From: Catajapyx aquilonaris
Lineage: Eukaryota
Direction: 5' to 3'
NCBI GenBank assembly: GCA_000934665.2
Contig: JYFJ02004407.1
Span: forward strand, 1-32,396
DNA length: 32,396 nucleotides
The notes beneath the pieces are model-generated. The model ran no database searches, had not been told where the DNA came from, and saw only the letters and a list, made by a program, of their open reading frames with translations. Position numbers and translations under genes: made by a program. Below, in pieces: positions 1-32,396 of the stretch; positions within the stretch are counted from its first letter, which is position 1, and each line of letters opens with the position of its first letter.

Positions 1-28
1 GGGCGTTTCCCAGCTACTTTGGGTCCTA

Positions 29-2210
29 CTAACATGATGTGCATAGTGGTTTCCGAATAACACGCCGAAAGTTTTTTTTTTGTTGCGCTGTGTTATCCGC
101 AAGAAGCACCACGTCATCCGCAAATTGCACAAACCGTATGTCCTTCGTGTTAGGGGTAAGAGCGACTCCCGGCACACCACTTTCATTCAGCCAATGTGCT
201 AAATCTGATAAATATAAATTAAATAGAAAGGGGGATAATGGTTCACCCTGGAGGATTCCACGATTTATCTGGATTGGGGAAGTATTATCATCCTCGCTTG
301 CTATACGTGCTGTAGCATATATGCTCCTTATCACTGCTAACAAATTATCCGAAGGTATCACACGAGCAAGCATGGCAAACATTATGTCATGCGGGACTGA
401 ATCGAATGCCTTGGCCAAGTCTAAAAATATTGCATATAATTTCCCACCTGGCCGACTCAATTTTTTATTGACCAGAGTATTCAGCACAAAAACCTATTCA
501 AGGCAGCTATATCCCGACCTAAATCCCGCCTGTTCCTCAGGGATGATGGCCTCACCGTCACACCATTTCGTTAACCTCTTCAGTACCATTGAGGTGAGGA
601 TTTTCAGTGCGTTATTCACTAAAGAAATCGGCCGATAGTTTGACGGGACGTCTTCCCCCCCTTTAAAAATAGAAATTACTTTGACCTCGGTCCATGCCTC
701 GGGAATAGTCCTTGTCGCCATGATCTTGTTGTACAGTTGCAATAATCTGGACTGTAGCCTTACAGATCCCAATTTGTAGAGGCCATTCGGTATATTATCT
801 AGTCCTGGCGCCGAGCCAGTTTTGAGTCGTGAGATTGCCGATAATAATTCTACTTGGGAGAAAGGAGCATCCAAAATTGGGTGAGCATTAGGCACTAATG
901 TTATCATCGGGATCACTAGACGTATCCTATACAAGTCCGTCAAATATTCACCCCAACCTCGTAGATCCGGTCGCCTGGGTTCCACCTTGTATAGATTACT
1001 CCGTATCACCTTCCAAAATACCTGGGGATCTCCACGTTGCAATAATAGGTTTGCCAAAACTGTTGAATGTAGCTTTTGTTTCGCTTTTATCTGGTTTTTA
1101 TATGCCCGTAGGCTTTGCACATAAGTCAATCTATCAACCGGGTTCCCCGTGCGACACCATTTTTTTATGTATTTTCCCAAGCCGCTTTTTGGACAATTGT
1201 AAATCCTCGTCGTACCAAGGCGCATATTTGATTTTTTGGCGGGGGCGTACAATTACCCCCACCTTCCGCAAGTAGCCTGTAAGCACCGCCGTGAGTTCCC
1301 TTTGTATCTCATCCACCGCTATGTCCTCCAAGGACGAATCCACTCCCATAACAACAGTATCAATCTCCTCCGGCGTAATTAAAAATATCTTACTCTTCAA
1401 ACATATTTCAGCGGGGATTGGTGGCAACGTTAAAGTTTCTACTTCCCTCATAATTGCAACTACTGGTAAATGATCTGAACCCGGAATCATCTCTACCCTA
1501 AAATCTTGTATACAATGAAGGAGAGGAGTTTGCAACATGTGATAATCAACTACACTTCTCCCTTGTGCTGACTGGAACGTGAATCTCCCTCTCTGGTCTG
1601 AATATGAGGAGCCATTTAGTACCGTCAACGCAAATTTATCCATTAATTCCGTTAATTGCTTCCCTCGTTTATTCAAAGTAGTATCTTGGGACATTCTTTG
1701 CTGAGTTAATTGAGGGTATAATGGGGGAGGGGGAAAATTGGCCTCGGCTATCCGTGCATTAAAATCCCCGGTGAGCATAATCGCATATCCCATGGCCGAT
1801 AGCCTCTCCAATTCGTCCCTCAGCCTTCCCATTTCCCCTTCAAATCTACCATCCGGGGGGAGATAAATTAGTCCCAAAATCGTCTTTACTCCAAAGAAAC
1901 ATTCTATTTTCACCAGAATTGACCAGTTTGACGACCACACTAACTGGGGGGTCAATTTTTTATATACATAAACCATGAGGCCACCCGAAGGCCGTCCTCT
2001 CTTTAACACTTTTGTTGCAAGAACCTGATACAATACATAATCACTTGCCCTCGAATTAACCCTATTATCTAATAGCCATGTTTCAACAAAGCCACACCAA
2101 TACAAATTTGGATGGGATGTTAATAATTCGAAAAAAAGTTGGGATGTGTCTGAACCTCGCACATTCCATGAGATAATAAATCCCAAATCGGTAACTGGCT
2201 GACCAATCTC
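29..2210 (-). pseudogene. LINE ORF2 (APE endonuclease + reverse transcriptase), disrupted
   Basis: APE motifs SWNVRG, ETW, GDFNA, VVDY, SDHLPV. RT motifs APGLDNI, NYRPISL, QAGFR, FLDLAKAFDSV, GILQGEPLSPFLFNLY, FADD. Disablements: an extra base in the T7 run at 1160-1166, an in-frame TAG at 494-496, and loss of frame near the T run at 72-81. Confidence 0.93.
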
Positions 2211-3473
2211 TCAATTCTTTGTTTTATTGGGTTTCTTTGCTGGCTGGTACACCGTCGGTGACACTGAGATACCTCTCTTGGACCCTACACCTTGTGCCGC
2301 CGAGTGCTTGGGCAGGGGAACCAGCGATACTTCATCCGTACTCAAAGTGAAAGCCTTCCCATCTATCATCGCTCGATCATAATTTATAAACGCCGTTTTC
2401 CCCTGCCCCCTCGCCTCAGCAACAAAATTCCATAACTTCGCCCGTATTTGCCGTGTTTGCCAAGAGTAGTCCAATGACACTTTAATCTCCTTGGCCGGCT
2501 TGTCCCTAATCATGCCCCAGAGATAGATTCTATCCCTATAATCCAATAATTTGATTATTATTGGCCTGTATGACTGCGTTGGTCGCCCCTGGCTTGGATT
2601 TTGACCACCCTTAAATTGGCCTATCCTGTGCGCCCTTTCAATCACTGGCCTATAATCATCCGTGTACCTGTGACACTTATCGAGTAAAGTCGGGAGGCAA
2701 GTGTCACGGGAAGGGGGAATAAATATGGAATCAAGAGTAATGTGGGAGAACAGAATGTATTGACGTAAACGACTCAATAGTACCAAGTATAAGGAGGGGA
2801 GGAATAGGTGATGGTGGTGGAGGATTGGGAGGAGAGAAGGAGGATGGGTGGTAACTGGATGGGGATCAAATCCAGACTGCCCCAAAAAGGAGCAGGAGAC
2901 ATAGGGGTCCAAAAAAGCCAGGGGGAGGGGGAGGGGGCGAGGTCAAGGGAGGACAGTCTTTTTTAGGGGGGAACCGTTGGGCAGTTGGGCAATCAGTGTA
3001 AGTTTGAGGGAAAGTTTTTATGGGAGGTATAGGAGCGGGAATTGGCCTAAATGGTGTGGGGCAATATAGGGGATGGTTTGGATATGGCAGGGTCGTATGT
3101 ACAAATGGACTGTTTTAGGATGGGTGTATTGTAGGAAGGGAGAGCAAGTGCTGGGGTAACGGAATACCGTTACATACCAACCATAGTTCTTACACACTTC
3201 GTGAATCTTGGCCGTCAGCGATGCATAGTTCTCTCTTGGTAATTCTTCGATCCCATGGAACACCAGGTTTGAGCGTCTTGATCTGTCTTCCAGGTCTCGC
3301 ACCTTCAAGGCCAGCTCGCCAACTTCCTCCCGCAATGATTGAATACTGGATTCTTGAATTTGAAGCTTCTCCTCCAATAATGTTGACACCTCCGTCTTCC
3401 AGGCCTCCAATTTGCAAGTAATCCTATCCTCCATCGCCCTCAAAAGGTCTTTAATCTCCAATACCGAGGCCAT
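2211..3473 (-). CDS. LINE ORF1 nucleic-acid chaperone (L1 transposase_22/RRM-like); join(3473..3178, 2667..2211) = 250 aa
   Basis: The upstream part has a coiled coil and LEDRSRRSNLVFHGIEE. The downstream part has IERAHRIG...RPIIIKL...KVSLDYS...IDGK. Both halves are in the same frame and join as KNYGW-YTDDYRPVIERAHR once 510 nt are removed. Confidence 0.85.
2669..3174. mobile_element. Solo-LTR-like insertion (506 bp) with 4-bp TSD
   Basis: Termini TGTGAC...GTTACA (TG..CA with a short imperfect inverted repeat). Flanked by TACC at 2665-2668 and 3175-3178. Abrupt purine-rich composition shift. Interrupts LINE ORF1. Confidence 0.8.
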
Positions 3474-3949
3474 TGTACCGCTCGGAACAGGACAGTATCA
3501 AACAAGGTCCAAATTAGTAATGGCCTTCAGCAATTAATCACACCCTATACGAGATACTGGGGTATCACTGCTCACCTTAAATATGGGTAGGGCGCTTGGG
3601 TGTTCACTACAAACACTCAAGGGTCTTTTCCCAAGCGCCCGGCTTGCCCAATTTGATGCGGTAAGTAGTCGACCTTGGTCGCTGAGACGCTTGCAAGGAA
3701 CGTGCTGTCTGCTCGAGCTACAGTTGGGAAGTGGTTTCTAAATATTGGGCTTATTGAGCGCTCTAGAAAGAAGTATAGGGTTTTTTCTTCTTCAAAATAA
3801 CACACTACTTACTGCTCCTGTCTGCTTTTGTATTAAATCATCTGCCTGAATTTCTTCTGCAGTTACTACACTTTCACAAGGTCTTAATGTAGGTGTTGTC
3901 ACTAGACATTTAATCCCTCTCCGACCTCATATGCTCTCCGTTCTTGCGT

Positions 3950-4620
3950 TACAAGTAAATGTTGGATTATACTCATGTTATGTCCACGTTGTAGATAACT
4001 GACCTTTTTAACTAACATGAAGTGATCATTTCAATATACGGAATAATTATCAGCATTGAAATGTGCGCTCATCTCTTAATCTTTCGTGGGTATCATTCAT
4101 GTCGCGAGGAGAAAATGAAATATGGGGAAATGAGGCATAACTGTGCAGAATGGAAATTTTGGTTTTATAAACGGTTGTAGAGTTGGGAGGACTTGCAGGA
4201 CGTGTCAGATGGTCGTAGAAATTACCTCACTGAGTGTAGTAAGGTTGTGTTTAACTCTATTTGACACTTTTTGACTTGTGGACAGATATTCTGACAGCCC
4301 GCCTACATTTTCCATTTGAATTTTTGACGGGGACATAACGTAGGCTTGCTAAGTATTGTAATGCAGGGCCGTCATTATGCGTGTTCCCATTTCGTCTTAT
4401 ACTGCCTGGGGTTGTGTTTATTAGCTCATAATGAGAGTTGGGTTACTCGTAAAGAACGATACATATGTTAGTACAGAAAAGGTACATATTCATATACCGA
4501 CACAGATATCCGTTACGTCAATAATACTCCTCCGGACATCTCAGCCCCACCTCCTTCTCGTCTGCTTCTGCTAGTAGGTCTTCTCGTCCAAACTCGTCCA
4601 AACATCCTGGTTCACATTTG
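3950..4620 (-). pseudogene. Very degenerate PIF/Harbinger-like transposase remnant
   Basis: Scattered minus-strand motifs in the expected order: RVWTR..SR.RREG, ALQYLAS, FPH. Many stops and frameshifts. Confidence 0.25.
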
Positions 4621-4994
4621 CACCTTCAACCACTAACTGATAGCGAATGAAATAGGCCGCAACACTTCTCTCACTCTTCTCATTTTGTTTCGGTTTACTT
4701 TCAGCATCGTCGTCATTTTTTTATTGCTTCAACACATCTTAAGTAGGTTTGTCCACTAGCGCTTTTGCGGACATTGCTCTTGGCATTCCAGACATTGTTT
4801 TTGAGAGTGCTTCAGGGATTGGCCACCATATCGCCACCATAATTATAAAATGGATCGACACTAACTGCTGATATCCAAACCTAGAACCAGAAGCCCATAC
4901 AGCTCAAATGTATTTTATTAAGCAGCAGAGGCCATTATGTCCTTCATTTTCTTCCGCTGCTCTTTCTGTTCCTCTGACTGTGGCTTTTTCAGTT

Positions 4995-5490
4995 GACCCT
5001 TGAAGGCCAATTCACACAGGCCGTCGACCGGCAATGGCTCTCGTGACTTTGTGGATGACCCTACAGGCCGCACTTTTGTAGACCCCAAACAAATCTACCA
5101 CAAACTATAAGGTTCCCGTTGCATAATATCTTAACGCCAACAGCAGCTGGTTGATTGGCCACAAGCTTTGGTTGTAATCTGAAGGAAACTCCAGCAATTT
5201 GTGTCCCAACTACGGTGTAGACTTTTAGAGCAGCTTTGCTCCAGGGGTGCAATGCCACGTTGGCGTGGTCTTCCGCACTTTATTAATTATATATAACTGT
5301 ACCTCAGACAACAAGATAAGTACAGTTGCCTTGCTGATGCGGAATCTTGCCCTAAAGTGGTCCTCCTCCGTAGTCTCAAATTTTCCATGTACACCTTGGG
5401 AGTGTGGAAAATATTCCAATTTTCTAGCATCAGCCACTCATCTTCGTCTTCCGAGCTGCTGCTCTGTGGCCACAAGGCAGTTGCCATGGC
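4995..5490 (-). pseudogene. PIF/Harbinger (HARBI1-like) transposase N-terminal fragment
   Basis: Acidic N-terminus SSSSEDEDE, then DHFRARFRISKATVLILLSEV, then the HTH segment PINQLLLALRYYATGTL*FVVDLFGVYKSAACRVIHKVTRAIA. Contains stops and frameshifts. Confidence 0.8.
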
Positions 5491-10965: not shown

Positions 10966-13900
10966 GCTCCTGTGTAGTGTGTGCCCAGGTGAAAATGTGA
11001 GCCTTGGCAGATATAATGCAACGTCGCTATGACCACTATAGTATCGTTCTCTTTTCTGAGCAGGGTAATTGTCCTGAACAGGTTTTACCACTCTGTCAAT
11101 AAGCCTTGTGGATATTGGACGTGTTCTTGTCTTGTACCATGTACACATTATTGTACCTGGTTTGTATGCTCATGCAAGATGACTACTTGGATATTCGATC
11201 AGTTTGTTTATGGCTCGAATTTTGTAATTAGAAAGGAGACTTCCACAGTCAGTACAGTTTCCTGCTGGCGCGTGCCTCTATAATTGCATCTTTTTGCTGA
11301 GTTGTTCTTGGCCAGAGATATCCTCCTCTTCACTCCCAATCTGTGTCAAGGTATAAGGCATGAGATGTTTGAATTATTATTGCCTTTTCAGTCTTCACCG
11401 GTCTTGAATGGGCCTTCCTTCTTTTTGTCAGTATGTGCAGAGGCGGTTTTACATAGTAGCACATGTAGCACGTTGTCACGAAGCTTACTATGATAGCCCC
11501 AAATTTGGCATCTGAAACAAGCATAAATCGACATACCAAATGTGCTTTTCTTAGAGAATTCTTTATTCTCACCACTTCACAAACAACATTCAGGCGAAAG
11601 GATTATACCACTCCAAAGGTTTTCACATTTAGTAGGAGAGGTCAATGGACGGCTGGGTAGGTAGAGCTAACAAAAATCAACAGGCCTGAATCACTTATCA
11701 TATTTAGTAGACGCAGTATTGTGACCACGCCGATCATCAAAAACGGAGTGGGAAATAATAAAACAATGGGGCAACACGCCACAACGCATTCACCTTCACT
11801 TTCACTTTCCGATAAGCAACACTCTCGCCTTGAATGAGCTTCACCCAAAACGAAGTAATCCTCCCAACGGTCCTGGAATCATTGATCGACGTCGAACAGT
11901 TTTGCGGTGTAAAACCAAGTCGCACTTGATCGCACCACAGCTCCGAATCCACAGAGTCAAAACTCACACCCCGCACAATAGCAAAAGGGGAAGGTCGCTA
12001 TTAGGTGACAACAGGCGCGTACAATTTTCCCACGCACTGTCAAAGAGGGGGAGGGGGGGGGGGNGGGGGAAGGGGTCACAATTTAGCGGCAGTCGAAGTG
12101 TGCCACATTACTACGCAACACTACAAAAGCCGCGAAAAGTAAACTTCGGGCTACCGTAGGACCCCACCCGTTGCCCGTACGAGACCAAACACTCCGTACA
12201 ACTCCAGGGCGCAATTATAACAGTGGCTCCAACGTAATCCGGGCACAACCAGCCCCGTTGGAGGAAAGCCACTCACTGCCCGTGCAAGGACAGCCCACCT
12301 CACAGCAAAAAAAAACTTATCGGCAACGCATTCCTTATCAAAGCAAGTCCGTGGGACAAACCGTCAAATGTCACACGTGACACACGTGCTACAGGCCCCG
12401 CGCTGATGCTATTATAAATTTGTCATTAAGTATTACAAATTATCTTGCATAGTACATTCGGACAATATAATGAAGATTTATTTGCTTGAGTGCGGGATGA
12501 AGTTTAGATGGAGACAAAATGGTCTGGAAGTATAGCTGTGCGGGTTTCACAGAAACTGGGGGGCTAAATCAGTGGCGGATATACTGTACTTGGCAGGGGG
12601 GGCCCAGTCCGGGGCCCATCTCTCCCACAGGAGGTTGAAGGCAAAAATTTTGGGACATAAAACCGGCCTGGTTATCTTTCCGCGCCAGAGGGAAATCAGG
12701 TGCCTTCAATTAGGAATTCCGACTTCTGGTCGAGGCCGAGGCCGAAGGTAACTGTGCAATAATGTATAGTATAGTTACTGTGCACTGTACACTGTGCAAG
12801 GCAAGAAATAAGAAGTCACTGAGGTTGTTGGAGGCCAACTGGATGGCAATTTTTTAATGCATTTTTGGGGGGTCATGCTCTATGTAATATTGACAACCCT
12901 GTGTACATCTTGAGGGTTCATCATCCGGTATCAAGCCTGAAAAATCTCGTAGGCCCCGTACTTATGCACAGTGCAGAGTGCACACAGGGCCATACACTTC
13001 TTGTGCAGGCACGCTACTGAACAGCAGAGCTAGGTCTGTAATTATTATTATTATAGTGGTTTTACTCGGATTTCATAATGTACCCACGCAGCGTAATATG
13101 TGTCAACTATTATTACCTCAATTCCTCTTGTTCTTCGTATGTCAAGAGGGATGTTATTCCTCAAGCCAGGTACAGCAGAAAATCAACATGTGAATTTTAT
13201 GTCAGGTACATATAAGAGTACATATTCAGGCCTATAGTATATCATCAGGGGATGTTCTTTGCCACTTTAAAAAATGCCGTTTACTTAAAAACTGTGGTTT
13301 CTAGAAAATATGTGATAACATATTTGAAACAGACGCCAAAACAAAGTGATAAAAATTGATGTGTTTGCAAGTGTCTATGCTCGGAGACTGCATTGATCCT
13401 AATAACTACAGTATATGATGCAGGATTATTTTAGTTGGAGTGTGAATACTTCTTGTGAAGTTTTGCAAGTAAGAGTTTAAATACAGTTCAAAATTTGTAC
13501 ACAATTGAACTCCTGTTAAACACGCCTAAATTAATGAATTTAATTAAATATCCCTTAAATCTTCAGTAGAGTTATTGCTGTCCCATCAAGTCTAAGCTAT
13601 ATATGGAGATTTAGCATGCTGGGAACCATATGAAAGCTTTACTGGAAAGCAATACTGGAAAATGTGACAGAATTAGTCAAAGGTTAGGAAAATTTTCCCC
13701 TACTTATTTTATGTATGCCTAGTTAGGTTTTCAGTCTATGCGATTATCATTGTCCAAAGTCATCTCAATCGCGTGTCTACATCGAGTCGCCAGCTAGTTT
13801 GCGTTCATTATGTGTTCAATTCTGCGCAAATAGTGTTATTTTCTTGTTGAATTTGTGCATTGCAATGAGTGTCGTATACTGTGTAGTCTTTCTATAATTC

Positions 13901-14486: not shown

Positions 14487-14569
14487 TTTATTAACGTCTG
14501 GGGTTGTTTCCCCTTATGACGGAGAGAACTTGCCATCATTGATAATATTATCTAAAAACAGTGTCCACT

Positions 14570-17500
14570 ATGAAGCGGACTGCTGATGAAGATCCAGAGA
14601 CCACTCCTCATGTGTCTTCCACTGTCACTGTTGCGATGGACACATCAGAAGCTGTTGATGCAGTTCAGGGGTCCCCTTCGAGTCCACCAAACCAACAGTC
14701 CCTGACTTATCCAGGTGATCCAGGACAGGATGGAGTGGCAGGCAGTGTGGGGTCACCACCACCATCTATGCCAACCCAGCAGTGGGATGATGATGCATCA
14801 GGTGTCAGCAATGGTAGTGCCCACGATGGTCAGCCGCAGTTCAAGCGCTTGAAAAGTGATGAAGCCTTGGCCTACTTGGAACTAGTCAAGTCCACGGTTA
14901 GTTACCAGCCGCAGTTGTACAATGACTTCTTAGACATCATGAAAGCCTTCAGTGCTCAGTCAATCGGCACAACAGGAGTTATTAAGCGTATCTCGAGCCT
15001 TTTTCGACATCACTTGGAGCTGATTGTTGGCTTCAATGCTTTCCTGCCCCATGGTTGTAAGGTCGAAGTTCTGCCTGGAGAAAAGATGATCGTGACCATG
15101 TCTTCTGAGACCAGAGTGGTGCCCATTCCAACTGGGTCTCCACACACTGACCACATCCAGCTTCCAGTTGTTGCTGCAACCCCACCAGAACTAGTAGGCA
15201 GGGCAGCTCATCCGGTACACAATGTTGTGCCGTCTGTTGGAATGTCACCAGCAACATCGCCTCAAGTTCACCCACATGAATTCAACATTGCCATCCACTT
15301 TGTGAACAAGATCAAGACCCGGTTTAGAGGGCAGCCAGACAAGTACAAGCAGTTCCTACATGTACTTAACAATTACCAGAAGGAGCAGCATAAGCTGACG
15401 GAGGGTGCTGCTGCGTCTTCACTTCCAAGTAAGCATCAGTCGGAGGCAGAAGTGTACTGGCAGGTTTCCAAATTGTTCGATAACCAGGAGGATTTGCTGC
15501 AGGAGTTTTTGCAGTTCTTGCCTGATGCTAGCAGTTACACAGCATTTTCTGGTGAGAGCTTCAAAGGGGCAGCTGTGAAAAACCCAGTGGTTACGGTTGC
15601 AAAACTACCAGTTTTTCCTAGAGCACGTGCCGTGGCAAAGTCGAGGATGTCGCCAGTCATGTCGTTGGCTGAACCTGGAAAGCATGGCTCCTCACTTGAC
15701 AGTTCGTTTTTTGACAAGGTTCGTCGTGCAATCAAGTATCCCAAGCATTACGAGAACTTTCTGAGATGTCTGGACCTCTACGACGAACGGGTTTTGTCAC
15801 AAGAAGAATTGGTGCAGCTGGTGACACCATTTCTGGGCAATTTTCCTGATCTGTTTAACTGGTTCAAAGACGTCTTGTATTGCCCCAGAAGGGACACCCT
15901 GCAGGTTAATCCCATACCCATACAAGTTGCTGAGTGTTATGGAGCATCTAGCGACTCTGACCATGAGGTTGACTACTCCACATTGAATTGGATTGATGGC
16001 AGCTATCGTGTTCTCCCAGAAAGCTACGTTCATCGAAAGTGTTCTGGCCGCACCAGCCTTTGCAATGAGGTTCTGAATGACACTTTAGTTTCTCTTCCAT
16101 CATATTCGGATGATTCCACTGTAATGAGCTGTCGTAAAACAGAGTATGAAGTTCACATGTACAGAGTTGAAGATGACAGATTTGAGCTGGATATGATGCT
16201 TGAGACTAATGCAGCAGCTATTGTCTCTCTGGAGGCAGTGCAGAAATTGATGTCACGTATGACTCCAGAAGAGGTTGAGCAATTCACACTTGACGACTGT
16301 CTTGGAGGCACCTCGCCAACTATAAATCAGAGGGCCGTGCGTCACATATACGGAGAGAAAGGCCCTGATATTATTGTGGGCCTAAAGATGAATCCGCATT
16401 TTGCCATTCCAATCGTCTTACAGCGTCTGAAGGAAAAGGATGAGGAGTGGCGTGAATCACAAAGAAGATTCAAGAAGGACTGGCGTGAGCAGATGGAGAA
16501 GTACTACCTGAAGTCGCTGGATCATCAGGGTATTAACTTCAAGCAGAATGACATGAAGGTCCTAAAAAGCAGGAGCCTCTTAGGGGAAATAGAGGCGCGT
16601 TATGATGAAAGACATGATGAGGAGGCCGATGATGATGAAGTGTCGGAAGGTCCTCATCTTGTGTTGGATTACCAAAACAAGAGTGTCACTGACAATGCTG
16701 CAGATCTTATCCTGCATTATGTGAAGCGGCACCATGGGATACATCCTGAAATGAAGCAGAAGATCAAGCAGTTGTTGCGACGAGTAGTGCCCGAGGTGTT
16801 CTTAGAACCAGGTCAGAAGATGGATGAAGATGCGCCTAATGTTGATGATGATTGTGCCCCAATTACTGACACCATGTCGTTCAATGATAGCTACAAGATG
16901 TTCATGGGGTGCAAAAACTGGTACCTTCTACTTCGATACCACCACATACTATGTGAGAGGTTGATAACCATGCAGCAACATGCACTGCAGATTGCAGAAG
17001 AGGAGTCTCGTGAGCGCATGATTCGACGCGAATCTACTGCTATTGCTCTACGATTGAAGGAGCTGGGAAACTTACCTGTTGATGAGTACGCCAGCACCTT
17101 TCTAGACTTGGTCAAACATATGCTTGAAGGAGTAGTTGATGAGGACACTTATGAAGACACGTTACGTCAGATGTTTGGCATCCACGCGTACATTGCATTC
17201 ACCTTGGACAAAGTTGTAGGCAATGTTGTGCTTCAACTTCAGCACATTGTAAATGATGAGAGGTGCATGAGGTGCATGGAAGCATTCTCTCTAAACCGTG
17301 GTTGTCATGAGGCATTGTACCAACGTCGTGCTCAGAAGTTGATGCCCAAAGAAAATTGCTTTTGCATCAAAGTCTACCACCACAAGTGTCTCATAACGGT
17401 GGAGCTTCTGGTTGAGGAACAGAATCCAGTGAGAATGGTTCCAAATTGGTCGTCGTATGTTGAGCAGACCACTTTTCCACAGCCATGGAAGGAAGTCCTG

Positions 17501-17959
17501 ATGATGCACAGTCCAATATTTTTGCCACGCAACCGACGCTCTTGGCCTGCTGCAGCAACAGCCGGTGAGTCAGAAAATGTTCCAAATGTAGCTGATAATG
17601 TAAATAATGTTTCATTCCCCTTTTAAGTCGCAGATAACAAGGCAGTGAAGGAAGTGGCCAGTCATGATGACTACATGTACAAGAGGAACTCACTCCGTCG
17701 GGGACGTGAAGGGCATCCCAGACTATCCCGCAGGATTGATGCCCGTTTCCATCATTGGCACTGGAAGTGGTCCAAGGCCAACGTGAGTCGCCGGCAGCAT
17801 GTGCAGACCGAAGACTGGATGATGGGCAGGGGATATGGCCAGATCCGGACCTGGGCCAACAGATGTGATGACCTGTCACGCCCACCTTACCGGGAGTACA
17901 AACGCTACAAGGTTGAGAGGCAGCCTGCAAAGGAACAATCCAAGGAATCAGGAAAGTAA
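14570..17959 (+). CDS. Sin3A: Paired amphipathic helix protein Sin3A-like co-repressor, probable retrocopy; open 14570-17626, conserved C-terminus continues in frame to 17959
   Basis: MKR start. PAH1 (YNDFLDIMKAF..QSI.T.GVI.R.S.LF..H.ELIVGFNAFLP), PAH2 (EFNIAIHFVNKIKTRFRGQPDKYKQFL), PAH3 (FFDKVRRA...YENFLRCL). HDAC-interacting domain (SYRVLP...KCSGRT.LCNEVLND, RVEDDRFELD, EKYYLKSLDHQGINFKQND). Sin3_C region (YEDTLRQMFGIHAYIAFTLDK). After the TAA, DYMYKRNSL...RF..W..KW still resembles the Sin3A C-terminus. Confidence 0.93.
17565..17633 (+). other. Candidate short phase-1 GT-AG intron containing the in-frame TAA (ends 17627 or 17633)
   Basis: Donor CCG|GTGAGT, branch-like CTGAT at 17592-17596, pyrimidine tract TTTCATTCCCCTTTT. 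Acceptors AAG (63 nt) and CAG (69 nt) both preserve the frame. Confidence 0.5.
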
Positions 17960-23134: not shown

Positions 23135-26100
23135 CTGCTCAACAGATCCCATTGTTCTGTGGCCCTAAGACAAAAATTGTGACGATATTTATATTGCATC
23201 ACTTAAGAGCACCGTCAATTACTTCACAGAGACTTTGACATTTTTTCTCCAACACCAGAAACATTAACAATTATTCACCTAAGGTGAGGAGCATAAGCAT
23301 ACTCCTAGCATACCCACCTTGTGAGAAAGAATTATGAACATCATTATTTTGCAAGGAAAAAGTGCTGGTCTAGCACCCCAGGCAGCACAAAAAAACGGCC
23401 CATGATTGGCACGATATTGGCCCATGGTCGCGAAACTGGGCATAGCTTGGCCGATCTAGCCGGTCTACGGCCAATGTCGGCCCTAAAACGGCAGCCGATC
23501 TAACCCCGATGTGACTCTCAGAAAGCAGTGTGGATGCCGAGGATACATTCCCTCAACGAACTACTTTGTAAAGAAGCCATGGCCGATCAAGATCAGATCC
23601 AGGCAGTGATGGCAATGAATTGCAGCATAAATGATACGTTGTTACCACTGATGCAGTACATGAAGGATGAAGTGAAGGCCACCAAGGACGACACGGCAGC
23701 CGTCAAGAGGTGGACGGAAAGTTGTGGGTAGGCTACAGAGGACAGGGTGAGCCGGTCGCTCTGAAAAAGAAAGTAAAAAGGACAAACCCCTGCAACGGGG
23801 ACAAGCGGGGGGGCAAGCAGAGGAAGGGCCTGGCCAATTGCACCCCTGGCCTCGTAAAAGTGGTATTGGCAACTAATTGAGTGTTTGAACTGTAAATAAA
23901 ATTTCAATTTCAACCATCGACTCCTCAGTTCTACAGCAGTTGTATACGATTTTGATCCCATGACTAGCATTTTGTGTATCAGTCTATGTCCTGGACTGAT
24001 TCTGCCTTGAGGCAGGACGCTGGCCTTCAAGTGTCACAGTAGACAAATAATCCTTCTTTCAGACGAAGGACACAACATCAACGAGACATATATCATAAGG
24101 ACAAAAGTAATTCCTATCAACAGACTCCCATTGTTATGTGGCTCTAATATACGTAATAAAAATTTGCAAAGATGGAGCAATAACGGATACTAGTGCGCTG
24201 ACTCAAATATTTCCTGGAATTACACTGAGTCACTTATTATCATCTTCGCATTAAGCAGGCCGACTCGCGGTTTATGCACGTCGATTAAGTCCTCGTAAAA
24301 CAGGCGCATAATGAAAACATACACAGATCATGTCATACAATAATTTGTGCGAGCAAGGTGGCAGCTCTACATGAAGAACATGACGACATATTGGTTATTA
24401 GTAACTAATAGCCAAACCTTCTACTTGAGAAGCGCTTCTTTGACAAAATCATGATATGACCCTTTTCGACTTTGTACTTTTGAAACTGTTGTCATTCTAG
24501 CATACGCTGATATGTTGACAAGAATCAGCACAATTGGAAGAATTTACCTTCATCCTCATGGTGTACAGAGGGGCCATTTTAGACTCGACAGGAAAAACCC
24601 CATAATTTCTGCACCGTGTTCGACCTAGTGTTTCCATAAGGTGATATCGTCCAGAAGAAAAGGATGATAATTAACCACAAATTTCGCAGAACATCTTGTC
24701 ACAACACTTCAAAAACACGTGAAACACTACTGAATGAGCCCTTCAACCACAACGAGACATAAATATCATAAGGACAAAAGTAATTCCTATCAACAGACTC
24801 CCATTGTTATGTGGCTCTAAGCCTAAAATTGGCACAACTTTTATATTGCATCACTTAAGAGCACAGTCAAATTATTTCAGAGATGTTGACATTTCTACAC
24901 ACAAACCGACAAATTCATCTAATACTTTAGTTAGACTCTCCAAGGGAAGGATAAAGCAGGTGCCATGCGAACCAAGTAGGAACATGAACCCAAGACCTGT
25001 ATCCTGGATTGTGTGTGGCGCATCATTGTTGTCACGACATGACTTGCCCAATAAACATCTGAAAAACCACTAGCAAAAACGATAGTGGGTTTCCGATCAC
25101 TCAAAACCTGTTCAACCCAAACCGCAACAGCCATTTTTACAATCCTGTTCACATACACAATAATGGTGTGTGAAAAGGTTTTACACACAGGAATGCCTGA
25201 TACAGCACTGAAAATGGATCGAAGATGACGATGAGAGAAGCTTTGCACAAAATAATAATATTGGTGGGTTATGAACTAGACAGGTACCAGTATCTGCGCT
25301 CACATGATTACGTCAGACCGCAGGGGGCCACATTTGCAAGAACATTGTGTTAACACTTGTAACTTGTACCAATGGTGTCTTCAAGTGACAGACACACTGC
25401 TTTTATACAAAAATCAGGTAATGTACCTCGCTAACATCAGCGACATCTTCGTGGAGAAGGTATGTCTCATAGGGACATTTAGTATCCTTGTAGTGCTTGT
25501 GCACCAAATGAGGAATGCTGAAGGTGTGGCGTCAGGCCCAAGTGGCAAAACATAAAATAATATCTGATGTAACGACACATTCCGTTGTTCACACCAACAA
25601 TACATGAACAATCAAGCACCAACTGCGACAAATACCTCAGAGCGACAGGCTATTTATGCAACTTCAAAATGTGTACAATCCTCATATTGTCGCTCTTGTG
25701 GAATAAATTCAAATCCATTTAACTTTTAAGTATTCAATGTATTGATTTGTACCATTACTGCAATCCAGAAAGTACGTTCTACGGATTACTAGGTTCGCCG
25801 GGAAGTCTTGCACAACAAGCACCTGAATGATTCTCATATTTCGAATACGACGACGGGAGAAGCTTTGCACAAAATAATTTGAGGGTTATGACGAGCCACA
25901 CAAGTACCGGTGCCTCGCTACTGCTCAGCACGCTCCCGCGCACCACGACTACTGACGATTGCATACACCATGGTTACATAAGGCCGCAGGGGACCACATT
26001 TACAAGTAACTTACATTGTGTTAGCATGAAATTGTACTTGTTACACCAATGGTGTCTGGAAGAGAGGCATGACATGTAAGTTCATAAGTTGAAGAGTACA

Positions 26101-27770
26101 TGTAGCATATAATAAGTTGCTTAAACATCCAGAAAATCCGAGTTTGGAGGTTACATGTTGAAATACTTGACATTTATTCACATGCAGATGAGCAGCACGG
26201 ACTGCAAGATAAATGTGTGCACGATAAGGCCCGAAAAGGACAATAAAAATGAGTACACGGACGCAACTAAACTCCAATTACAGAGCAGTAAGAAAACACA
26301 ATGGAAGTCTACAGACTGGCACGACATCAGATCAGGGCGTGTAGTATTCACTTTATGAACAACGCTGTGCGGAACCAAGCCAATGATGCTATACCCTCAC
26401 CTGGCGACCTGGGTAACAAAAAAATGTAGTATGATTGTGATTGGAAACTTGAGGGCCTTTTTTTTAAAAAAAATGCGTCGGATGCTACTAAAAAATCACA
26501 ATTGCATGGCAGAGACAAGGTGTCCCCAGGGAGACATATGACAACTTACGCCTTTTTGGAAATAACAAGAAAGACTATCATTAGTTTAGCAGATGAATGC
26601 CCCACCACACAGTCATCTACTTCCTCCTCCGACGTCGACCTCGTAATAATAATATATATTAATTTTGACCGACACATTGTTGAATGATATACAATACCAT
26701 GCCAATCCTGCAACCAGAATTAAATCTATTGGTGTACACAATGGTAAATAATAATCCACTAACTCAACACAAAACTACTTACTGACTTTTCGTCAGACGA
26801 GTTCATTTTATCGCCTTTTTCATATGCTTTTTGTAGTACTGTATAATAATCAACCAGTCATATTATTATCACCTTACGTATGACATTTATAGAGCACTAT
26901 TTCAGTATGAACGGTTCGAGTGGCGGACTGATTCATGCCAATGTGTCTATTGATTTTAACTCTTTCCGGCTTTTCAGTAATGCCATTTGAGCTTCTCAAG
27001 TGATCTTGCATTAACAGGCATTATTTTATGGCTTAAAATGTTGAAACGACGCGACGAGATGTCGCGTGAGACCTACAAAATGCATGAGAAAAAAATCACA
27101 CACGTGTACCTCGTTCGGTTTGGCTGCCTGCTTAAAAGGCATTTGATTTCAGTGATCTACGACCTGGTAGTGATCTAAATTCTCCTAGGATTCCAGTCAA
27201 GAAACACTACTATTATACTGTACAACTGAACAGTTAGAAACATGTAAATGCGAACTGGAATAATTAACAAAGGCAACCAGCATGCCATGGTTTATTTCTT
27301 CCGAATATTAGATAAGTCCAAGCGATAGTGTTGCATTGTCGTGACCCGCCGATGGGGTCCAGTCAGCGACCTGTCCAACAACATTTGTATCGTAAAAGGG
27401 GTTGGACATCTGCTACCTTTCATGATATGAGGAAGAACATAACTTTTTCACATGAGTCACAGTAATAGCAAAATAATAACAAGCAAATGAGAAGGAGCTT
27501 TCTGGGTTGATACTTCCGAAAATGTTGTCATTCTAAAATACTCTTACATATATGGTCACAACACGTGAAACACTATACTGACATGACAAAGATAATAACC
27601 ACTCCGACACATATACAATAATGAAACAAGTAATTAATGCTCAACAGACCTTCATTGTTCTGTGGCCCTATACGCCAAAAATTGTCAACACTCATTTCAC
27701 AGAGATTTTGACATATTTATATTCAGCACCAGAAACATGACAAATTCATCAAATGGGAAAGGCATGCTTA
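23135..27770 (-). mobile_element. Scrambled, repeated fragments resembling a Crypton-type tyrosine recombinase
   Basis: Recurrent minus-strand block translating MQYKYRHNFCLRATEQWDLL (~23135-23270; variants ~24085-24148, 24765-24895, 27630-27740). Second block KCPYETYLL...NTMFLQM...NH..R..TG...FVQSFSHRHLRSI (~25210-25510; variant 25850-26060). Reading requires frameshift correction. Confidence 0.35.
24678..27770. repeat. Tandem duplication unit, copy 1 (~3.09 kb)
   Basis: Starts CAAATTTCGCAGAACATCTTGTCACAACACTT and ends GAAAGGCATGCTTA. Collinear and highly similar to 27771-32174; several ORF-track peptides occur twice. Confidence 0.93.
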
Positions 27771-27802
27771 CAAATTTCGCAGAACATCTTGTCACAACAC
27801 TT

Positions 27803-28702
27803 TGTGACAGAACTGGCTGAGAAGATTTCATCTCGAGAATAGTATTCTTCACATACTGTAAACTATAAGGGTGCTCAAAAACTCGCGGAAAGTCGGCAGG
27901 TAGCCTGATAGGACTCGCAAAACTAATATAGGGATGTGGAAGTAGTTTTGGGCTAACTTGCATAGTTTTTGCGTGCGACGCCTTCAAGATTTCGGCAGTT
28001 TCATGACGTCACATCCGCCTTGAGGCCCCCATTGCGTCATCATACATGTTGTTGTGGCTGTTGCCATTGTCACTGATTATTGGTGCGAATATTGTCAACT
28101 GTGATTGTTGAGAAATAAACAACGGTATCTGTGGCCAGTCGACACCTCAATTGCCAGACTGAAATCGTAGTTTATTTCTCAACAATCACAGTTGACAATA
28201 TTCGCACCAATAATCAGTGCCAATGGCAACAGCCACAACAACATGTATGATGACGCAATGGGGGCCTCAAGGCGGATGTGACGTCATGAAACTGCCGAAA
28301 TCTTGAAGGCGTCGTACGCAAAAACTATGCAAGTTAGCCCAAAACTACTTCCACATCCCTATATTAGTTTTGCGAGTCCTATCAGGCTACCTGGCGACTT
28401 TCCGCGAGTTTTTGGGCACCCTGTATACTGACTGTATTCTTTCCGTATAACTACCCGACCTTGATACTCCTACGTCACCTTGTATACTGTAGCATTCCCA
28501 CCATCCTTTGCGCTTGTACCCTTTAAAAGCCCTGGTGCTCCACACCTCGAGGCCTTTGGTCGTCCTTCTGGGAGGCCACTGGCCACGCCACTTCCCTTCC
28601 TACCTTTACTCTTTAACCTCTCACCCATTATAAGTGAACAGATTATTAAAAAGGATATCTTGATATGAACCCAGTTTGTTTATGTTCCACCATTCGGTGA
28701 CA
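27803..28702 (+). mobile_element. Possible LTR-like segment (~340 bp net) interrupted by the fold-back MITE
   Basis: Begins TGTGACAGAACTGG and ends CCATTCGGTGACA (imperfect inverted ends, TG..CA). Contains TATA-like TTTAAAAG and ATTAAA. Absent from copy 1. No TSD found. Confidence 0.35.
27868..28423. mobile_element. Fold-back MITE of Tc1/mariner type
   Basis: 27868-28120 is the reverse complement of 28170-28423 with about 4 mismatches. Termini (C)AGGGTGC are flanked by TA on both sides. Non-coding. Confidence 0.93.
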
Positions 28703-31287
28703 TAAAGTTTCTGGACTCATAAAGAAGAAACAACAGTCGCAGTACCACATGTTTCTTCTGGTCTTGTGTTCTGGCACGTCGGACGTGGGACGTCGGACTT
28801 GAAGACGGATGTAGGGTTTAAACCTGTACTTCCCATTAACCCCAAAACACGTGAACCACTACTGAATGAGCACATCAGACGACGGACACATCCACAACGA
28901 GACATATATCATAAGGACAAAAGTAATTCCTATCAACAGACTCCCATTGTTATGTGGCTCTAAGCCTAAAATTGGTACAACTTTTATATTGCATCACTTA
29001 AGAGCACAGTCAAATTATTTCAGAGATGTTGACATTTCTACACACAAACCGACAAATTCATCTAATACTTTAGTTAGACTCTCCAAGGGAAGGATAAAGC
29101 AGGTGCCATGCGAACCAAGTAGGAACATGAACCCAAGACCTGTGTCCTGGATTGTGTGTGGCGCATCATTGTTGTTACGACATGACTTGCCCAACAAACA
29201 TTTGAAAAATCACTAGCAAAAGCGATAGTGGGTTTCCGATCACCCAAAACCTATTCAACCCAAACCGCAACAGCCATTTTTACAATCCTTTTCACATACA
29301 CAAAATGGTGTGTGAAAAGGTTTTACACACAGGAACACAGCACTGAAAATGGATCGAAGATGACGATGAGAGAAGCTTTGCACAAAATAATATTGGTGGC
29401 GGGTTATGAACTAGCCAGGTACCAGTGTCTACGCTCACCATGATCACATAAGACCGCTGGGGACCACATTTGCAAGAACATTGTGTTAACACTTGTAAAT
29501 TGTACCAATGGTGTCTTGAAGTGACAGACACACTGCTTTTATACAAAAATCAGGTAATGTACCTCGACAACATCAGCGACATCTTCGTGGAGAAGGTATG
29601 TCTCATAGGGCCATTTAGTATCCTTGAAGTGCTTGTGCACCAAATGAGGAATGCTGAAGGTGTGGCGTCAGGCCCAAGTGGCAAAACATAAAATAATATC
29701 TGATGTAACGACACATTCCGTTGTTCACACCAACAATACATGAACAATCAAGCACCAACTGCGACAAATACCGCAGAGCGAAAGGCTATTTATGCAACTT
29801 CAAAATGTGTACAATCCTCATATTGTCGCTCTTGTGGAATAAATTCAAATCCATTTAACTTTTAAGTGTTCAATGTATTGATTTGTACCATTACTGCAAT
29901 CCAGAAAGTACGTTCTACGGATTACTAGGTTCGCCGGGAAGTCTTGCACAACAAACACCTGAATGATTCTCATATTTCGAATACGACGACGGGAGAAGCT
30001 TTGCACAAAATAATTTGAGAGTTATGACGAGCCACACAAGTACCGGTGCCTCGCTACTGCTCAGCACGCTCCCGCGCACCACGACTACTGACGATTGCAT
30101 ACACCATGGTTACATAAGGCCGCAGGGGACCACATTTACAAGTAACTTACATTGTGTTAGCATGAAATTGTACTTGTTACACCAATGGTGTCTGGAAGAG
30201 AGGCATGACATGTAAGTTCATAAGTTGAAGAGTACATGTAGCATATAATAAGTTGCTTAAACATCCAGAAAATCCGAGTTTGGAGGTTACATGTTGAAAT
30301 ACTTGACATTTATTCACATGCAGATGAGCAGCACGGACTGCAAGATAAATGTGCGCACGATAAGGCTCGAAAAGGACAATAAGAATGCGTACACGGACGC
30401 AACTAAACTCCAATAATTACAGAGTAGTAAGAAAACAGCAATAGAAGTCTACAGACTGGCACGACATCAGATCAGGGCGTGTAGTATTCACTTTATGAAC
30501 AACGCTGTGTGGAACCATGCCAATCCTGCAACCAGAATTAAATCTATTGGTGTACACAATGGTAAATAATAATCCACTAACTCATCACCAAACTGCGTAC
30601 TGGCTTTTCGTCAGACGAGTTCATTTTATCGCCTTTTTCATATGCATTTTGTAGTACTGTATAATAATCAACCAGTCATATTATTATCACCTTACGTATG
30701 ACATATAGAACACTATTTCAGTATATGAACGGTTCGAGTGGCGGACTGATTCATGCCAAGGTGTCTATTGATTTTAACCTGTTTTAACTCTTTCCGGCTT
30801 TTCAGTAATCCCATTTGAGCTTCTCAAGTGATCTTGCATTAATAGGCATTATTTTATGGCTTAAAATGTTGAAACGACGCGACGAGATGACGCGTGAGAC
30901 CTACAAAATGCATATGAATGAAATCACACACATGTACTACCTCGTTCGGTTTGGCTGCCAGCTTATAAAAGGCATTTGATTTCAGTGATCTACGACCTGG
31001 TAGTGATCTAAATTCTCCTAGGGTTCCAGTCAAGAAACACTACTATTATACTGTACAACTGAACAGTTAGAAACATGTAAATGCGAACTGGAATAATTAA
31101 CAAAGGGAACCACCATGGTTTATTTCTTCCGAAGATTAGATAAGTCCAAGCGATGGTGTTTCATTGTCGTGACCCGCCGATGGGGTCCAGTCAGCGACCT
31201 GTCCAGCAACATTTGTATCGTAAAAGGGGTTGGACATCTGCTACCTTTCATGATATGAGGAAGAACATATTAACTTTTTCACCGAAG

Positions 31288-31554
31288 TTTGGTTTGGTTT
31301 ATTTGGAAGAAGCCAAAGCAACTGTGGCTATCTGGCTATAAGAAGAAGCAAAGGTGGGAGAGATGGAGAGAGAAACGAAGAGGAAAAAGAAGAGAGGAAA
31401 GACTGGCATCTCTCTTAGTCGGTCTCCTATCCCAAAGACCTGTCCGGCTTGGGTGGCCCTACCAGTAGACGAAGCTACCGCCGGTATAGCTCTTGGGGTC
31501 ATGGGAGAAACGCAAACCCCACCACCACGATAAGGTGGAGATACCATCGGGGGG
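31288..31554 (-). mobile_element. Short non-autonomous RTE-derived retroelement (RTE 5' UTR + pyrimidine tract + CCAAA-repeat tail)
   Basis: 12-bp TSD TTTTCACCGAAG at 31276-31287 and 31555-31566. The 5' sequence CCACCTTATCGTGGTGGTGGGGTTTGCG...GAGCTAT...GGTAGGGCCACCCAAG..GGACAGGTC resembles the conserved 5' end of RTE-clade elements such as BovB/Expander. 3' tail AAACCAAACCAAA. Confidence 0.75.
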
Positions 31555-31561
31555 TTTTCAC

Positions 31562-31837
31562 CGAAGCAGGTTGGCATAGTGGATAAGGCGTCCGACTGCT
31601 AATCGGGAGGTCCTGGGTTCGAATCCCGGGGCCGGCAACTCTGACCGTGGTTTTCTGTGGTTTCCCACGGTCCTTCCAGGGAAATTCCGGAGTTGCTTCC
31701 GTAATTAATAGGCCACAGCCGCTTCCTTCCGTCCCTATCCTATCCCAAAGAGCGCAGTAAAATGAAAGCAAAGAGTTCCAGCCAAAACAAACTTCCCCCC
31801 TAAAGAGCCGATGGCTCATAACGGGGTATGAATTATT
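31562..31837 (+). mobile_element. tRNA-derived SINE with a Deu/Nin-like conserved body
   Basis: A box TGGCATAGTGG, B box GGTTCGAATCC, anticodon-like arm TCCGA-CTGCTAA-TCGGG. Body GGTTTTCTGTGGTTTCCC...CCAGG.AAAT...TAGGCCAC.GCCGCTTCCTTCC. ATT-rich tail. 16-bp TSD ATATTAACTTTTTCAC at 31267-31282 and 31838-31853. Empty site in copy 1 at ~27439. Confidence 0.9.
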
Positions 31838-32396
31838 ATATTAACTTTTTCACGTGAGTCACAGTACTAGCAAAATAATGACATGCAAATGAGAAGGAGC
31901 TTTCTGGGTTGATACTTTCGAAAATGTTGTCATTCTAACATACTCTTACATAATTATATGGTCACAACACGTGAAACACTACTGACATGACAAAGATAAT
32001 AACCACTCCGACACACACACAATAATGAAACAAGTAATTCATGCTCAACAAGAATTCATTGTTCTGTGGCCCTATACGCCAAAAATTGTCAACAAGCATT
32101 TCACAGAGATTTTGACATATTTATATTACACACCAGAAACATGACAAATTCATCAAATGTGAAAGGCATGCTTATTAATTCGTCTGCATCACCCCAGAAA
32201 TGTTTTACAGTAATTTAAGTGTTTTCTGAATAAATCTATAATATTAAAATGCTTGCGGAGCGCGGCCGAGCCCTCTGATTGGTCCGCCCCCGTATTGTTG
32301 CCGCCACCTCCTCCCATTGGCCCCCGTCCATTGTTGCTGCGTCGTATCCATGGCGCATTGTTACCACGACGCCTCCGATTGGCCCCCGTTCCGAGC

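Follow-up and report, generated by a model that had tools for sequence, protein, structure and literature searches.

An LTR insertion with intron-like borders inside ORF1 of a defective LINE copy in Catajapyx aquilonaris

Introners that recruit splice sites from a target-site duplication were reportedly described by Huff et al. 2016. Families that take the 5′ splice site, the 3′ splice site, or both from the target duplication were described by Gozashti et al. 2022 (PMC9860276). A larger survey by Gozashti et al. 2025 presented 1,093 introner families, in which about 12% of the confidently classified ones were LTR retrotransposons, and reported functional introns derived from solo LTRs of a Copia family in the grass Panicum virgatum (PMC12130899). 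As far as the text of that survey goes, the documented examples of the route from LTR to intron come chiefly from protists, fungi, and a single grass, and its supplementary datasets may list animal cases (PMC12130899). LTR or solo-LTR introners and splice sites derived from target-site duplications are already published, and the mechanism put forward in a preliminary description of the locus considered here is a known one. The statement made there, that co-option of target-site duplications is known mainly from DNA transposons, is out of date in view of these LTR families and solo-LTR introns. A further related system is that of the human L1 SpIREs, which embody the idea of a spliced LINE RNA that is copied back into DNA (PMC5860796).

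The present locus lies in a 32,396-nucleotide stretch of DNA from Catajapyx aquilonaris (contig JYFJ02004407.1; the whole stretch analysed is called the window below), in which an LTR interrupts ORF1 of a LINE. It resembles the LTR and solo-LTR introners in that an open reading frame is interrupted by an LTR with splice-like bounds and is restored on its removal. However, an introner family is defined by many copies that are spliced out of host genes, whereas here a single candidate copy lies in a dead LINE, and the solo-LTR introner described in the text of that survey is a grass Copia family, not an animal one. As in the introners that recruit their sites from the target (PMC9860276), the donor GT and the acceptor G would be contributed by the target, and excision would be scarless, with the length of the mRNA unchanged. 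Most of those families are DNA transposons, whose target preference has been demonstrated and whose splicing is annotated, whereas the present locus offers candidate borders. With the SpIREs it shares the idea of retrotransposed spliced LINE RNA, but SpIREs, as reported, use cryptic sites of the L1 itself and lose L1 sequence (PMC5860796), whereas here the divergence between copies argues that the empty-site copies are sisters of the filled one. An introner is also expected to lie in a functional host gene that is selected to splice; the host here is a LINE with a frame change and a stop in its ORF2.

The insert occupies positions 2669..3174 on the minus strand of the window, is 506 bp long, and has the termini TGT...ACA, its sense strand being the minus strand. 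It is bounded by two copies of a GGTA duplication on the same strand, the upstream one at 3175..3178, which gives the G/GT of the putative donor (a slash marks the candidate boundary), and the downstream one at 2665..2668, whose first G completes the CAG of the putative acceptor. The donor-side junction on the minus strand reads ...TATGGTTG/GTATGTAACGG..., with the G at +1 located at 3177, and the acceptor-side junction reads ...AAGTGTCACAG/GTACACGG..., with the AG ending at 2668. The wider junction letters on that strand are AAGAACTATGGTTG/GTATGTAACGGTATTCC at 3190-3161 and CGATAAGTGTCACAG/GTACACGGATG at 2681-2656. On re-reading, the junction letters, coordinates, TGT..ACA ends, and GGTA duplication given in the preliminary description were all found to be correct. 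The longer termini, TGTAAC...GTCACA, match in inverted orientation at 5 of 6 positions. A small perfect palindrome, GTAACGG-TATT-CCGTTAC (3156-3173, minus strand), lies within the first 20 bases of the LTR. The composition of the insert on the minus strand (C 197, T 151, A 105, G 53) amounts to 69% pyrimidine, in line with the earlier remark that it is pyrimidine-rich on the sense strand of the LINE. No further copies of the insert were found within the window, where the best other blastn match spans 18-29 nt with an E value of at least 0.57.

The hypothetical GT...AG unit runs over 2668..3177 on the minus strand, is 510 nt long, begins with GTATGT and ends with CAG, and lies in phase 2, inside a Trp codon (TG/G). 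Excision of 3177..2668 in silico yields HEVCKNYGWYTDDYRPVIERAHRIG (KNYGWYTDDYRPVIERAHRIG) and a single open frame to the stop at 2213-2211, so that the claim that removal of the 510 nt exactly restores the frame of ORF1 as it was before the insertion holds. On read-through, the first in-frame stop inside the LTR is encountered at 3018..3020 on the minus strand, within an open reading frame spanning 3018..3497; this end of the unspliced frame had been described previously, and was confirmed by the ORF map and by translation.

The nature of the insert was addressed with public sequencing runs. Five runs of one organism were available for 2300-3600, of which X1-X4 are DNA from one sample and X5 comes from a second study, and none of the five is catalogued as RNA; contigs of X1, X2, X3, and X5 were aligned to window positions 1-5000 at 85% likeness, and X4 was left out. 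In contigs that match the insert, the similarity to the window breaks off exactly at 2669 and 3174, and the bounds of the repeat unit are, therefore, those deduced from the duplication. Beyond 2669, one contig each of X1 and X2 continues on the minus strand with AAA and then TGGCGCCCAACGTG, which equals the first 14 of the 18 letters of the tRNA-Lys1,2 primer-binding site (PBS) as printed in PMC1084362. Before 3174, one contig each of X2, X3, and X5 carries a purine-rich tract (polypurine tract, PPT) that consists of an A-run, GAGGGGGAG, and one T. A PBS after one copy and a PPT before another form the signature of the two LTRs of a full-length element, and the placement of PBS and PPT sets the sense strand of the LTR as the minus strand, the same as that of the LINE. 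The insert is, thus, a true LTR of an LTR retrotransposon, and its earlier designation as LTR-like can be made firmer, with PBS and PPT adjoining the same sequence in other contigs. A DNA transposon and a SINE were also considered as sources of the insert, and both were rejected on account of the PBS and PPT neighbours.

The X5 contig (1064 nt) matches 2741-3174 over 434 nt with 0 differences before it continues into internal sequence, and an X3 contig of depth 181 matches 2825-3174 (350 nt), also with 0 differences. Summed depth over the LTR bins ranges from 160 to 318, compared with 29-37 on the unique flank at 4526-5000, which points to several near-identical copies of the LTR, although depths added up over contigs should not be read as a copy number. 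The PBS motif has 0 matches within the window with up to 2 mismatches allowed, and no tRNA-Lys gene was called there, the only tRNA called in the window being a tRNA-Ser(GCT). Gypsy-like and BEL/Pao elements use tRNA-Lys and produce duplications of 4-6 bp. The insert resembles a tRNA-Lys(1,2)-primed LTR of the Ty3/gypsy or BEL/Pao type in its TG...CA ends, 4-bp duplication, PBS and PPT, and multi-copy state, in a comparison that covers the termini, the duplication, and the adjoining motifs.

The host of the insertion is a frame in two parts, both on the minus strand. The 5′ part (3179..3473) starts with the ATG at 3473-3471 and encodes a coiled coil and the start of an RRM (RSRRSNLVFHGIEE), and the 3′ part (2211..2667) encodes the remainder of the RRM and a C-terminal domain, ending with the stop at 2213-2211. 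Directly downstream on the same strand lies ORF2, with an apurinic-type endonuclease part at 1137..2210 (PF14529, 1.5e-07; PF03372, 7.5e-05) and a reverse transcriptase part at 32..1252 (RVT_1, 8.3e-06 and 2.9e-18). Searches of the two ORF1 halves alone against Pfam, at E values up to 10, gave weak coiled-coil matches only for the first half and none for the second, searches of both halves against PDB sequences gave nothing meaningful, and a word-indexed protein search with the second half gave 0 matches. An exhaustive HMMER search with the second half recovered 190 relatives at E values up to 0.001, none better than 1e-10. Among 14 longer relatives that were scanned, two reached the cut-off of PF02994 (Transposase_22, an L1 RBD-like domain). 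One relative, P0016, carries PF02994 at residues 171-251; residues 40-91 of the ORF1 5′ part align to its residues 139-187, and residues 9-109 of the 3′ part align to its residues 215-307 with an E value of 5e-19. The two halves are colinear on P0016, in the right order and with the right spacing, and their alignments straddle the PF02994 domain.

Because endonuclease and RVT_1 domains follow downstream, and because a relative with PF02994 aligns colinearly with the two halves, the host frame can be identified as a LINE ORF1 of the type that combines a coiled coil with an RRM. It precedes an EN-RT ORF2 that is likewise encoded on the minus strand, and the LTR lies inside its RRM-coding part. 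The product resembles a Type II LINE ORF1p in its position directly upstream of the EN-RT ORF2 and in the colinearity of its halves with relatives; it differs in that neither of the halves found in the window reaches, by itself, any Pfam or PDB match. The LINE copy in the window is dead. As noted in the preliminary description, its ORF2 is disabled, since the frame changes between 1137 and 1252, such that the reverse transcriptase frame is not the endonuclease frame, and an in-frame stop interrupts the reverse transcriptase part at 496-494. Near-identical contigs depart from the window at just these lesions, with one base fewer at 1160 and other letters at 496 and 497.

Several further observations concern the extent of the LINE. 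Upstream, across window positions 3508-4525, contig depth exceeds the unique level until a unique contig starts at about 4525, and the 5′ untranslated region of the LINE may extend for about 1 kb ahead of the ORF1 ATG at 3473. In a diverged LINE contig, 103 bases are skipped at 3363-3467. At the other end, the reverse transcriptase frame on the minus strand runs into an A10 run and then into a very high-copy repeat (window 1-96). Summed contig depth over window positions 1-167 is about 10,000, compared with about 30-37 on unique sequence, and many different continuations begin at 93-96. The repeat at window 1-96 is probably an abundant element, SINE-like or of another kind, which adjoins the LINE or cuts it short.

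The remainder of the window holds other features. An uninterrupted frame of 1026 codons at 14546-17626 (plus strand) has matches to the Sin3 domains PAH (three times), Sin3_corepress, and Sin3a_C, with E values down to 3.7e-46. The Sin3 gene is usually split in animals, and this intron-free stretch may represent either one very large exon or a processed copy. Many colinear blocks (families D1-D15), with 93-98% identity, make up a tandem duplication of about 4.1-4.4 kb at 24732-32180. An inverted repeat at 27868-28422, present only in the first duplication unit, has 265-nt arms that are 97% complementary and lie 25 nt apart, and looks foldback or MITE-like. The tRNA-Ser(GCT), called by ARAGORN at 31566-31637 (plus strand), lies inside the second duplication unit, with no twin called in the first, and could be a gene or a tRNA-derived repeat. 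The window contains a single N, at position 12064.

The GT...AG borders of the insert follow arithmetically from the TGT...ACA ends of the LTR and the GGTA target. When an element that ends in TGT...ACA makes a 4-bp duplication, any target of the form GGTN, AGGT, or NAGG yields an exactly removable GT...AG unit. Such tetramers make up 1015 of the 32393 in the window on one strand and 1002 of 32393 on the other (3.1% in each case); on the sense strand of ORF1 taken without its insert, they account for 43 of 774 (5.6%). About one insertion in 20 to 30 would, therefore, show exact GT...AG borders. The caveat of the preliminary description, that the arrangement may be fortuitous, is the favoured reading, and the locus is, with good probability, an ordinary, recent, nested insertion of a solo LTR in a dead LINE copy, with splice-like borders that arose by chance.

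According to this explanation, a tRNA-Lys(1,2)-primed, retrovirus-like LTR retrotransposon inserted itself into one LINE copy, within the RRM-coding part of its ORF1 and in the orientation of the LINE, yielding the 4-bp GGTA duplication as an integrase normally does. One LTR is left in the assembly, presumably through LTR-LTR recombination, and reads as a solo LTR. The target happened to be GGTA, which gives the junctions G/GTATGT and ACAG/GTA and a GT...AG unit that corresponds exactly to the LTR plus one duplication, and the insert in effect truncates ORF1 at the stop 53 codons into the LTR. No internal region lies between the LINE flanks in the window as assembled, and a solo LTR that originated by recombination is the presumed state of the locus. 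Given the frameshift and the stop in ORF2, removal of the insert is neither favoured nor opposed by selection, and the insert appears to have no function; the resemblance of its borders to splice sites is probably a coincidence.

The first alternative is that the insert is really spliced, at least partly, at G/GTATGT (3177) and CAG/ (2668), and represents a newborn LTR-derived intron in a dead element. This reading draws on the GT...AG borders, the phase, and the exact restoration of the frame, as well as on the pyrimidine-rich body of the insert. Splice strength was judged by simple consensus counts. The donor, TTG/GTATGT, agrees with CAG/GTAAGT at 6 of 9 positions; three sites between 3497 and 2211 reach this score, and GTATGT with G at -1 is the only one of them inside the first ORF1 part. 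A YTNAY-like TTTAC is found 17-18 nt before the CAG, and neither AATAAA nor ATTAAA occurs in the LTR on the minus strand, where the one-off variants AATACA (twice) and CATAAA were found. The lack of a canonical poly(A) hexamer is in favour of splicing; on the other hand, an LTR in the sense orientation normally has its own promoter and termination signals. The acceptor at 2668 is preceded by a weak tract, with 56% pyrimidine in the preceding 18 nt, and it competes with an AAG at 2676, 8 nt upstream, and with a CAG at 2877. Both of these have tracts of 72% pyrimidine, and both would shift the frame, with introns of 502 nt and 301 nt, respectively. By these counts the splice signals appear mediocre, with a weak acceptor and better-looking rivals, and splicing at the exact pair 3177/2668 seems possible but is favoured by no measured feature. 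The GT...AG borders and the restored frame of the preliminary description hold, and its "precise spliceosomal intron" is at most a candidate intron. There is published precedent in the solo LTRs that are reported as functional introns in Panicum virgatum (PMC12130899), and in introners described as drawing the 5′ site, the 3′ site, or both from the duplicated target (PMC9860276). However, the host copy is non-functional, so that even real splicing would have no selected role, and genuine splicing of the insert is considered unlikely.

The reality of the insertion was assessed on the empty site. X1, X2, and X3 each yield one contig, with a depth of 77-99, that joins 2664 to 3175 and skips exactly 510 bases, with 4 ambiguous letters at the joint, corresponding to the duplicated target, that fit on either side. 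A second, more diverged empty-site contig, with a depth of 17-24, joins 2665 to 3176. The ends of the DNA joint read CT..AC on the plus strand when the cut is moved by 3, which corresponds to GT..AG on the minus strand. In X5, which has only 2 contigs on the stretch, no joint was found. The comparison with other LINE copies that had been proposed previously has, thus, revealed near-identical DNA contigs that lack exactly these 510 bases, and, as the empty site is present as DNA, the insertion and its 4-bp duplication are real.

It could nevertheless be argued that the arrangement is an artefact of assembly, in which a full-length element was collapsed to one LTR, or in which the sequenced haplotype has no insertion, a short-read assembler having merged two identical LTRs or threaded through a repeat. 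LTR copies with 0 differences over hundreds of bases do exist, including full-length ones with PBS and PPT. No contig among the matches listed bridges 3174/3175 or 2668/2669, and the DNA runs contain only 0.68-0.74 of the sampled words of 2300-3600. However, the perfect 4-bp duplication matches the empty-site joint with its 4 ambiguous letters, as a true integration gives, and, even if a full-length element had been collapsed, the insertion itself would be genuine, with its site and borders unchanged. An artefact is, on this evidence, very improbable.

The empty-site contigs also bear on the history of the filled copy. The LINE flanks differ from them by about 1% (8 in 596, 5 in 368, 7 in 713, and 3 in 285), and a second version of the empty site is roughly 8-10% diverged. 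The differences from the window lie, for example, at 3336 and 3416 upstream of the insert and at 2526, 2345, and 2297 downstream, and the empty-site contigs are free of the ORF2 lesions of the window copy (around 1160 and at 496/497). Because the LTR shows no difference from its other copies but the flanks differ by about 1%, and because the ORF2 lesions are absent from the empty-site contigs, the empty copies look like sisters of the filled copy, and not like descendants of a spliced RNA. A much broader proposal is that the LTR family prefers GGTN-type targets and regularly makes scarless, spliceable GT...AG units, forming an animal LTR-type introner whose inserts LINEs shed through spliced RNA; this is very improbable, and the one other genomic flank of the LTR among the loose ends listed is not GGTA.

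Very improbable, too, is the proposal that the empty-site copies descend from the filled copy through a spliced and retrotransposed RNA, which would have purged the LTR in the manner envisaged in the preliminary description: near-identical empty-site LINE copies do occur as DNA, and retrotransposition of spliced LINE RNA is reported in humans (SpIREs, PMC5860796), but the LINE copy seems to predate the insertion of the LTR (0 differences over 350 and 434 nt of LTR, against about 1% in the flanks), the empty-site contigs lack the ORF2 lesions, the second, 8-10% diverged version is far older than the insertion, and a source with a broken ORF2 would need trans-mobilisation.

With a chance nested insertion of a solo LTR as the preferred reading, the locus indicates that GT...AG borders alone are weak evidence of the birth of an intron. 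Since DNA copies of the empty site exist that are about 99% identical to the filled one, RNA joins of 3178 to 2667 alone could not prove splicing; in hosts that are themselves multi-copy, junction reads speak for splicing only once the private letters of the filled copy have assigned them to it. Were the insert shown to be spliced, it would provide an animal case of an LTR becoming an intron at the moment of integration.
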